A stretch of DNA of 64,000 nucleotides from the NCBI RefSeq assembly GCF_053078305.1, contig NZ_CP166879.1; one strand, given 5' to 3'. The stretch's first letter is position 1, and every line of letters starts with the position of its first letter. Shown here piece after piece: positions 48,001 to 51,000 of this stretch. Made by a program: the position numbers.

Positions 48001-51000
48001 TAGTGCTATCAAATAGACTATGTAAGCACTTCATGAAGGATGTCGGTCGAACTGAACGGGAAACTTAATGATGCGAAAAATACTCAGGACAACTCTTATC
48101 GCTACAATTTTGTTTTCACCAATAGTACAGGCGGAGTGGTATACAGTAACAGACGACGATTTGTTCTCTGATGGTCACACGGCGCTGATGGTAGGAAAAA
48201 AAACATCAAATCCTGAAGAGATTGATAATAACATGATTGCTCTTAATTGTACGCCAAGATCCCTAACATTCTCATTAGTCGAAAAGGACATAGAAGAAGA
48301 AACATCGGCCCCAATTTATTCATTCCCAATAGATATGGCAATAAAAATTGACAAAAATAGTATAATAAGGCTCAACGCAACACTTTCAAGAAGAAACTCA
48401 ATGCTAACACAAGCTATCACTGAACGTACTGATACTGAAATGAAGAAAATTAAAATTATACTCAGGCAACTCAGAGATGCTAAACATAGAGTGAGGGTCG
48501 GGATTCGACGCCAAGACATCACACGAGAAGATGCCATGACATATTCTTTCAGCTTTAATGTATTAGGCTCCACTGGTGCTGTTAATAAATTTATCACTGC
48601 ATGCGGAATAAAGCTGTAAACATGTTTCTGCCAAAGCAACCTTGACAAATCCACATCGACGGGGATATATTCCACCTCATGGTGCTGAACACACCTTGCA
48701 AAGCGGAGACCGCACCCGTCAGTCATGCGGCTTTTTTATGTCCATTTTTCAGATATGGTCGGGTAGCGCGTATACCGAAAAACAGCCGAAAGGTTAAGGA
48801 TACGGGCCGACTTTGCACGGTGTTCAAGTACCTGGCCGCCCTGCTGAACACAGGGCTATCTGAACAAATGCAAAGGACATAAAATATGAACTCTCAACTC
48901 ATCCCCGTATTCAACGGCACTATCGACAACGAAACTACCCTGTTCTGTAATGCCCGTGATTTACACGCGTTTCTCGAAGTCGGAAAAGACTTTTCCACGT
49001 GGATACGAATCCGCATCTCCGAGTATGAATTTACAGAAAACCAAGATTTTATTTTGCTCCCCAAAACGGGGGAGCAAAGAAAAGGTAGAGGCGGTCACAA
49101 CCGCAAGGACTACCACCTCACTCTCGATACAGCCAAAGAGCTTGCGATGGTTGAACGTAACGAAAAAGGCCGCCAGATACGCCGATACTTCATCGAGTGC
49201 GAAAAGAAACTTCGCCAGAGCCTTTTACCTGCACCAATGAACATCAACTACCCTCTCTCGTGGTTCTCAGATAACCATCCCTACGCCACGATGAACTATG
49301 TTGATCGCAAAGTTATCAGCCTTGATGCTTCCGTGCTCTTCGATATGCCAAGCCCAACTATGCGCATCCTCAATGAGCTACACAGCAAGGGCTATAACGT
49401 TGACGCCGCTGTCGCCGAATTTAACGCCTTCAAACATCTGACGGAAGAAATGCGCCGTAAATTGCTGGATATTTCCCGCACATCGGAAAAGTCTTCCCGC
49501 TTTGGTTTCAACGTTAATCTTTAATTAACCCCATCCCCGATCACATATCGGGGATTAAATTAAATATCTGGATTAATTAACCGGAGGATTTGTCATGCTC
49601 AAACCTCACTACGGAACCGCATTAGTTTCTCGCGAGGAAGTTAAACCCGGCACTGCAATTCTTTACAACGGGCGTTATTACATGGCGTCAGCTAACGTTA
49701 ATAATGCACTTTACGCACATTCACTGATTGAAAAAATTCGCATTATCTCAGATGCAATAGAAGTTTACCTGAACAATAAAGGCCAACCGTTAATCTCACC
49801 AGCCTGAAAGGAAATATCATGCTCAATCAAGAAATTAATATCAATGTAAAAAGCGTCATAACGCCAGCGAAAACGATAATGGGAGAAGTTTTTATGGATG
49901 ATAAAATCATCGCCTATTTTGTCGTCCTGCCTGATGAGGCTATTTCTGTTATTGATACGGAAGGCAATGTTATGTTTATCGCGGAACATCCAGAAGACAT
50001 CGCATTACAGGCCGCTGCATATTTCTTCGCTAAGGAGCAAGAGGAAGAATGTAACTGCCCTGTCTGTCAGCTTTCCCGACAAATTAATTTAATGCATTAA
50101 CCGGAATCAGGAGTTCCGCCATGAACGCATACCTCACCTGCGACCGCATAGAGGAGCGTCGCTGGGCTAATCAGCAAATTCAGGATGAAAAGGATAAATG
50201 GATTGATGATCGGGCGCAGGAGCTTATCAGCATGTTCCCCGATAAACCATTGCTTATGAGCAGCCTTTTTTTACCCAAAGAAGCCCAACTGGCACTCACT
50301 GGCGAAAAAGCTGAAGAGGCGTACAACGATTATATCTCAGCGATCGCCTATGCTCGGGCGGAAGAAGAATGGGAGAGAAAATTCTCCCCCTGTCCTTTCT
50401 GATTTTCAGGACCAAAAAAATGTTCGATATCGTTGAATTTGTTAAGCAGCAGGAGCGCTTTTTCTGCGAGGCATTAACTGAACCAACGCTGACATGGGCG
50501 AAGGAAAGTCAGTTTGCAATTCAGCAATTCCAGAAAAATGCCTTTCTGGCTGACACAGCACGGGGAAATCTGTCCAGCGCACAGAACGCTATCATCAATG
50601 TTGCCGCTATAGGCATAACCCTGAACCCGGCCAGCAAGCTGGCGTATCTGGTCCCACGAAAAAAGGCTGTATGCCTGGATATCAGTTATATGGGGCTTCT
50701 GCATCTGGCACAGGTCACAGGAGCCATTCAGTGGGGGCAATGCAAACTTGTTTACGAGAAGGACATTTACGAGTCCAACGGTATTGACTGCGCCCCCACG
50801 CACAAATACAACCCATTCGTAGACAGGGGCGCACGCATTGGCGGTTATTGTGTCGTAAAAACATCCGAAGGCGACTATCTGACCGAAGAGATGAGCAACA
50901 GGGAAATCGAGGTCATCAGGGCGTGCAGCAAAGCCGGAAATAACGGAGGAAGTAGCCCGTGGGATAGCTTCCCCGACGAAATGGCCAGAAAAGCCATTGT

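Follow-up and report, generated by a model that had tools for sequence, protein, structure and literature searches.

A gene for a predicted periplasmic protein of IalB/MotY-N-like fold, candidate envelope-directed cargo of an Eru1-type prophage

The open reading frame (ORF) considered here lies in a stretch of 64,000 nucleotides (nt) from contig NZ_CP166879.1 of NCBI RefSeq assembly GCF_053078305.1, referred to below as the window. The window is a lambdoid prophage of Eru1 type. Its replication genes are of the helicase-primase kind, and N, cII and cIII are not annotated; Eru1 phages have been reported to be without homologues of N, CII and CIII (PMC8044961). Along the + strand follow a gene for a cI-like LexA/S24 repressor, an ORF of 56 amino acids (aa), hicAB (on the - strand), a pL-like promoter, the target ORF, antA, kilR, gamL, recT, exo and, further on, xis and int. 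The target ORF starts with ATG and comprises 183 codons at positions 48068-48619 (+ strand). Its features and those of its surroundings are listed below.

47524-47553, + strand: pL-like sigma-70 promoter TTGACT-18-TATATT, found by promoter scan, with immunity-specific, operator-like flanks
47560-47843, + strand: conserved non-coding leader of about 285 nt, common to Eru1/Oslovirus Shiga toxin (Stx) phages
47844-48067, + strand: cassette-specific upstream region and 5' untranslated region, absent from phage Stx2_EC3283; GC content 39.7%
about 47885-47917, + strand: inverted repeat (hairpin fold z -2.59)
47962-47990, + strand: weak promoter-like sequence TTCAAG-17-TATACT, read from the sequence and below the threshold of the promoter scan
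48068-48133, + strand: signal peptide of 22 aa, with a cut by signal peptidase I (SPase I) predicted after A22 from the -3/-1 rule and from conservation in 60 family members
48134-48619, + strand: mature domain of 161 aa and stop codon, a predicted IalB/MotY-N-like beta-sandwich with two helices and with invariant W24, C61 and C179
48704-48740, + strand: weak hairpin followed by T6, a possible weak terminator (-9.6 kcal/mol, z 0.2)

The ORF at 48068-48619 is a genuine gene, far beyond a chance ORF, since a HMMER search of 1.84 billion cluster representatives (50% identity) returned 69 relatives at E ≤ 1e-3, with 23 at E ≤ 1e-10, and since AlphaFold2, with the family alignment as input, gave a model with a predicted local distance difference test score (pLDDT) of 90.1 and a predicted template modelling score (pTM) of 0.85. 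Nearly all of the relatives have 160-180 aa, typically about 165, and they occur in prophages and in IMG/VR contigs. The gene has a GC content of 37.7% (33% at third codon positions), compared with 53.9% for the leader, 47.3% for antA and 49.5% for the whole window. Its Shine-Dalgarno sequence, as read from the DNA, is weak.

The N-terminus of the product, MMRKILRTTLIATILFSPIVQA followed by EW, has the layout of a Sec signal peptide. A basic n-region precedes a hydrophobic core, V-Q-A occupies positions -3 to -1, and the predicted cut lies between A22 and E23. The signal peptide was judged by its conservation across a 60-sequence family alignment, in which basic n-region, hydrophobic core and a small residue at the cut recur in every member (60/60). 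Ala occupies position -1 in 55 of the 60 sequences, Ala, Val or Ser occupies position -3 in 52, and a Trp two residues past the predicted cut is invariant. The mature part has exactly two Cys in all 60 members, and the columns of C61 and C179 are both invariant. Its computed properties are those of a hydrophilic protein of 161 aa (18.3 kDa, pI 8.0, grand average of hydropathy -0.34), in which no 19-residue Kyte-Doolittle window exceeds 1.01 and neither a lipobox Cys nor a membrane-spanning segment was found.

Sequence searches assigned the protein to no characterized family. Its sole family match was PHROG 19473 (E 6.6e-40), which is annotated as of "unknown function". An NCBIfam search of the target protein returned no family, and neither did a Pfam-A scan of the protein together with all 60 aligned relatives, where IalB was not matched at E ≤ 0.1. 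PDB sequences, searched with the profile and with single distant members as queries, gave no match, and the IalB structure 3dtd was absent even at E ≤ 10. PADLOC yielded no credible defence family for the target protein; a match to Csx23 (E 1.6e-4, over 39 residues of the long helix) was considered spurious, as it was not shared by five other family members. The preliminary description of this DNA had announced an ORF of 183 aa at exactly these coordinates, with a classical cleavable signal peptide cut after VQA and a hydrophilic mature domain of no recognizable family, and each of these statements agrees with the results above.

That description had also proposed a fold search, in which a housekeeping phage function might have emerged; instead, periplasmic IalB/MotY-N-like structures were returned. 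The AlphaFold2 model consists of nine beta-strands, a long helix (residues 122-137) and a C-terminal helix (168-179) ending at C179, with C61 at the end of a strand. Foldseek comparison with AFDB50 retrieved first members of the family, from Enterobacterales, Pseudomonas and Rhizobiales, and then entries annotated as IalB (E 2.7e-9 and 1.3e-7). In the BFVD library of viral structures only weak matches (TM ≤ 0.5), to uncharacterized phage proteins, were found. The mature protein is thus predicted from the model to adopt an IalB/MotY-N-like beta-sandwich fold. Membership in the IalB family (Pfam PF06776 / COG5342) is apparent at the level of the fold and not at that of the sequence profile; the N-terminal signal peptide of that family is present as well, and envelope localization is predicted.

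The structural relatives differ from the phage protein in several respects. IalB of Bartonella henselae (3dtd) has a similar fold, with about 10% identity in the structural alignment and no detectable sequence similarity; IalB proteins are chromosomal and alphaproteobacterial, whereas the present family occurs in Enterobacterales mainly as prophage cargo. IalB promotes erythrocyte invasion, and a mechanism for this has reportedly not been established. RgsG of S. meliloti, which has an IalB domain, is a periplasmic, essential and pole-localized protein belonging to a set of Rgs proteins studied together with Tol-Pal (PMC7327166). The other structural neighbour, chain 8z5n_A, is presumably MotY of the Vibrio polar flagellar T-ring. 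The MotY-N domain attaches the stator scaffold to the basal body of the flagellum, and MotY is the product of a core flagellar gene, with an additional OmpA-like peptidoglycan-binding C-terminal domain. Unlike MotY, the phage protein has a single domain, and E. coli is without MotX and MotY.

Within the Eru1-type backbone the gene behaves as an optional cassette. An identical copy was found in only two of 5426 complete E. coli genomes (FHI_NMBU_10 and JNEC-KY176). In Stx2a Oslovirus phages with the same leader, the leader runs straight into a differently headed antirepressor gene and the target ORF is missing, while the antA C-terminus, kilR, gamL and recT are kept. Phage Stx2_EC3283, for example, shares window positions 47400-47843, and its homology resumes at about 49238, inside antA. 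The target gene is therefore a variable cassette and not a conserved member of the operon. Together with this presence or absence between collinear phages, the deviant base composition and the unrelated positions of homologues in unrelated backbones, described below, are hallmarks of a moron.

Two further alleles were found in the same backbone, namely L011 (87% protein identity) and L023 (97%). Comparison of L011 (positions 7936-8620) with the window revealed 31 nt and 23 aa differences, with a ratio of nonsynonymous to synonymous substitution rates (dN/dS) of about 1.2. The divergence is confined to about 48000-48690; the flanks at 47600-47899 and 48700-48899 are 100% identical, with no difference in the 400 nt before and the 200 nt after the cassette, and a second divergent patch covers the N-terminal half of antA (48900-49099, at 57-72% identity). 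Replacement of a cassette of about 650 bp (about 48000-48690) by allelic recombination is a simpler account of this ORF-confined divergence than a diversity-generating or hypermutation process, which was therefore set aside. Among the three alleles dN/dS ranges from 0.9 to 1.45, against 0.28 for the neighbouring antA. All three retain the 183-codon frame, the signal peptide, both Cys and the other invariant residues, which in the family include W24, D31, F33, D95, N110, G145 and F175, and the substitutions are mostly conservative (R/K, D/E, T/S, M/I/V). In L023 (IMG/VR contig 2563366825_000009) similarity to the window stops 22 nt before the ATG, at an IS21-type insertion element, so that neither pL nor the putative weak promoter is still linked to the gene there. 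An istA/istB-like pair at 4140-5000 of this contig (513 and 249 aa, assigned by size and N-terminal sequence) ends about 110 nt upstream of the ORF.

Across the family, five or more different slots are used in tailed prophages, among them Mu-like and lambdoid ones, and a homologue is often encoded opposite in strand to every neighbour. In Mu-like prophages at six chromosomal insertion sites, the gene order closes with com/mom and then P0004, an E. coli homologue of 45% identity. In these prophages (L003-L008, positions 6001-6692) the common sequence ends 188 nt past the stop codon of the homologue, in ...CGTGCGCCGCCTCA (also given as ...TTTTCGTGCGCCGCCTCA), with terminal CA, an end that resembles the right end of Mu. 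A scan of IMG/VR with 10 closer sequences gave 50 loci, 24 of which were inspected. At half of these (12/24) the homologue lies between terS and a minor tail gene, and at two between an HNH endonuclease gene and the Rz spanin gene, so that 14 of the 24 homologues are opposite in strand to both flanking late genes. Five are on the same strand inside a tail cluster, by the tape measure gene (in L043 between the tape measure and baseplate hub genes), three lie in a Mu-like early region and two are of the window type. In two of the tail-cluster loci (L068 and L069, positions 5525-5893) the homologue is directly followed by another small ORF (122 aa), which starts with MMKKIVLASLAVILLTSTASASELR and has a signal-peptide-like N-terminus.

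One homologue is located in a genomic island with integrase, KfrA and PerC genes, and three are on megaplasmids. An apparently chromosomal copy, L009, has upstream sequence resembling that of cos-proximal copies and may be a phage remnant. A gene that is inserted singly at the borders of modules, in backbones unrelated to each other, bears the mark of a moron. A protein that is exported cannot belong to the virion.

The preliminary description had further called the ORF the first gene of an early-left operon, a designation that holds by position and fails by conservation. The promoter at 47524-47553 lies downstream of the cI-like repressor gene, and the target ORF is co-oriented with it. It was named pL because its -35 and -10 hexamers are invariant relative to Stx2_EC3283 while flanks and spacer bases differ, and because homology with the heteroimmune relative L011 begins at 47547, at the -10. 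Operators at this promoter are inferred; a search for 17-mer repeats common to the cro-cI and pL regions, allowing up to three mismatches, detected none. About 510 nt without a credible ORF separate promoter and gene: no + strand ORF of at least 40 aa occurs as far as 47888, and ORFs of 42-43 aa nearer the gene are without support. The target is thus the first substantial ORF after this repressor-controlled leftward promoter, although it is missing from relatives with the same leader.

The leader itself is strongly conserved. The region 47400-47842 is 96.4% identical to many Stx2a phages, with no mismatch over about 47545-47822, and the identity with L011 is complete over 47600-47899. Between 47560 and 47843 there is no + strand ORF of more than 31 aa and no Rfam match, and the folding is slightly better than that of shuffled sequences (z -2.06). 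Since Eru1 phages are reported to be without N, the leader may act at the RNA level, in regulation or antitermination. The scan for promoters and terminators detected no + strand terminator between the pL-like promoter and the target ORF. The hairpin and T-run after the ORF make an unconvincing terminator, since they fold no better than shuffled sequences and were missed by the terminator scan; some homologues have a clear terminator directly after the stop codon, such as L034 at 5520-5535.

These results are best explained, with a probability of about 0.4 for the whole chain of steps, if the target ORF is an accessory (moron) gene that functions and moves horizontally and whose product is a periplasmic envelope-binding protein, with superinfection exclusion as the favoured outcome. 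Transcription would start from pL on induction or infection and possibly, in the lysogen, also from a weak promoter that belongs to the gene itself. The product would carry a Sec signal peptide, cut by SPase I after A22, and the mature 18-kDa protein would remain in the periplasm as a soluble IalB/MotY-N-like beta-sandwich, probably stapled by a C61-C179 disulfide; such a periplasmic disulfide is expected because exactly two invariant Cys occur in the mature part of all family members. The protein would then bind a component of the host envelope. Binding is preferred to catalysis because the structural relatives are non-enzymatic periplasmic parts of envelope-spanning assemblies. Phages arriving at the carrying cell would be stopped after adsorption, at a step in the periplasm, comparably to exclusion by P1 Sim or T4 Sp/Imm, to which the protein is unrelated. 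An accessory, envelope-directed role, rather than a core phage function, had been suggested in the preliminary description, and the results support it.

The nearest models for such a gene are P1 Sim and the envelope morons of lambdoid phages with respect to function, and IalB and MotY-N with respect to structure. Sim (SimC) is a phage-encoded precursor with a signal peptide, which is processed and exported, and it serves here as the functional model for periplasmic exclusion. The P1 sim gene directly adjoins c4-icd-ant, and the target ORF likewise directly adjoins a promoter, a c4-type RNA and an antirepressor module (see below). SimC has 264 aa, against 183 for the target protein, and sim is divergent from c4-ant, whereas the target ORF is co-oriented; homology to SimC was rejected (hhalign probability 0.3%). 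Like the target family, lambda bor and lom, HK97 gp15 and cor of phi80 and N15 are low-GC single-gene insertions of variable presence, often on the opposite strand, and both groups occur at module junctions such as lysis/cos or inside tail clusters. Their products, however, are lipoproteins, outer-membrane beta-barrels or inner-membrane proteins, whereas the target protein is predicted to be soluble, periplasmic and of a different fold, and at the target gene neither a promoter nor a terminator of its own stands out clearly. Lambda N and HK022 nun share with the target ORF the first coding position after a pL-like promoter. Unlike these, the target protein would be exported and so would not act on transcription, and the gene is missing from close relatives with the same leader.

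Superinfection exclusion, which the preliminary description had proposed next to receptor masking, is a plausible outcome in view of the predicted location in the envelope, the behaviour as cargo, the slot near the immunity genes and a possible arms-race signal in the dN/dS values of the alleles. Several observations weigh against it. No homology to a known exclusion or defence protein was found in the searches against SimC (by hhalign), PADLOC and PHROG, and tblastn searches with three family members detected no homologue in 50,697 GenBank phage records. The carriers possess very different tails (Mu-like, lambdoid and short-tailed Stx-like), which argues against the recognition of one specific incoming phage. 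A dN/dS near 1, calculated from just 31 substitutions, fits relaxed constraint equally well, and no strong or consensus promoter belonging to the gene was detected, either at the target ORF or upstream of homologues. To our knowledge, no mechanism has been established for proteins of the IalB fold.

Carriage by phages of unrelated tail types, on three megaplasmids and in a genomic island would also fit a benefit that is independent of phages. The gene might thus encode a lysogenic-conversion factor that changes the envelope to the advantage of the host, for instance in stress tolerance, adhesion or invasion, serum or bile resistance, or motility, as may be compared with Bor, Lom, the periplasmic SodC of Gifsy and Sp prophages, and Bartonella IalB. 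The fold is closest to that invasion-associated protein, in Alphaproteobacteria proteins of the IalB fold are encoded on the chromosome and associated with the envelope, and the E. coli strains with an identical gene are of human faecal or clinical origin. Yet membership in the IalB family is not found in sequence, and the analogy predicts little when IalB itself is without an established mechanism. The rarity of the gene, in two of 5426 complete genomes, argues against a strong general gain of fitness, and its position after a repressed early promoter is poorly suited to constitutive expression, so that a host-benefit factor, while deserving attention, appears rather unlikely. A further alternative is a helper of the lytic cycle, made after induction, which might condition the envelope, for instance by delaying or tuning lysis, by protecting from lysis from without or by preventing the re-adsorption of progeny to the dying cell. 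Co-orientation with pL with no detected intervening terminator, the five same-strand homologues in tail clusters (in L043 tightly fitted between the genes for tape measure and baseplate hub) and the three in the Mu-like early region would accord with such a role, with pL driving expression here and late tail operons doing so in other phages. The gene is nevertheless optional among near-identical phages, hence dispensable for lytic growth, and both the 14 of 24 homologues opposite to all neighbouring late genes and the last position after mom in Mu-like prophages are typical of independently expressed cargo; a lytic helper is therefore improbable.

The alleles can also be read as those of a decaying or functionless passenger of this prophage lineage, in which the fold of the family would be real and this copy neutral. 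Consistent with neutrality are the dN/dS of 0.9-1.45 among the three alleles, the IS21-type element 22 nt upstream of the start codon in one of them, the weak Shine-Dalgarno sequence and the great rarity of the gene. Against it, frame, signal peptide, Cys and invariant residues are kept in all three, and most substitutions are conservative, their number being too small to tell neutrality from diversifying selection; this explanation is accordingly regarded as very improbable. The reading as a mobile, envelope-binding exclusion protein is thus preferred. A broader extension of it, that the IalB/MotY-N-like cargo proteins of about 165 aa from Mu-like, lambdoid and other tailed prophages of Enterobacterales form an unrecognized class of envelope effectors, which would dock on a conserved trans-envelope machine such as Tol-Pal and block genome entry of a broad range of phages, is speculative and on balance doubtful.

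Phage cargo that encodes an exported protein is already known, and what is mildly new here is the recurrence of an IalB-like fold as prophage cargo in Enterobacterales. Should the protein act on the envelope, the few extracytoplasmic cargo proteins of phages would be joined by a soluble effector of the periplasm, and an experimentally easy E. coli entry would open to a fold that is linked to erythrocyte invasion in Bartonella and, via RgsG, to an essential periplasmic protein of Rhizobiales. Docking of such effectors on a trans-envelope machine would, if true, provide the first defined molecular mechanism for the IalB fold. For Stx-type (Eru1) prophages, the stretch between the pL leader and the antirepressor module is shown to be a cargo slot.

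Other elements of the window, detected by promoter scan or as Rfam matches at the gathering level unless otherwise evident, are as follows.

37847-38060 and 38122-38333, - strand: two tandem copies of STnc100
46633-47286, - strand: hicA/hicB toxin-antitoxin pair, between the repressor gene and pL
47286-47258, - strand: perfect consensus promoter TTGACA-17-TATAAT of hicAB
48642-48671: strong promoter-like sequence TTGACA-18-TATATT
48757-48845: match to the small RNA sRNA-Xcc1 (65.9 bits, gathering score 53)
48886: start of antA
57728-57801, + strand: isrK
57827-57910, + strand: C4 antisense RNA, in tandem with isrK

With the hicAB pair, the immunity region has a second piece of inserted cargo. 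In Stx phages the usual place of stx lies between the genes for the Q antiterminator and the SASA/NanS-p esterase. The prophage appears to be stx-negative, because RefSeq annotates only a 72-aa DUF7661 protein in the corresponding interval, positions 2802-4159 of L001 (about 38869-40226 of the window). No tRNA genes were found anywhere in the window.

Directly downstream of the target ORF, positions 48642-48900 form a module resembling the antirepressor control of P1 immI type. Two stretches of the RNA, CUUUGCA (48811-48817) and GUGUUCA (48820-48826), are complementary to an upstream pair at 48686-48692 and 48697-48703, and also downstream to 48846-48851 or 48861-48866 and to 48869-48875, the last of which adjoins the Shine-Dalgarno sequence of antA. 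This layout of paired sites mirrors the a1/b1 and a2/b2 targets annotated around P1 c4, and in APSE phages sRNA-Xcc1 has been reported ahead of a gene with an ORF6N domain. Elsewhere in the window, isrK and the C4 RNA overlap a coding sequence for a hypothetical protein and the excisionase gene xisR just upstream of int, as placed by coordinate transfer from L001.

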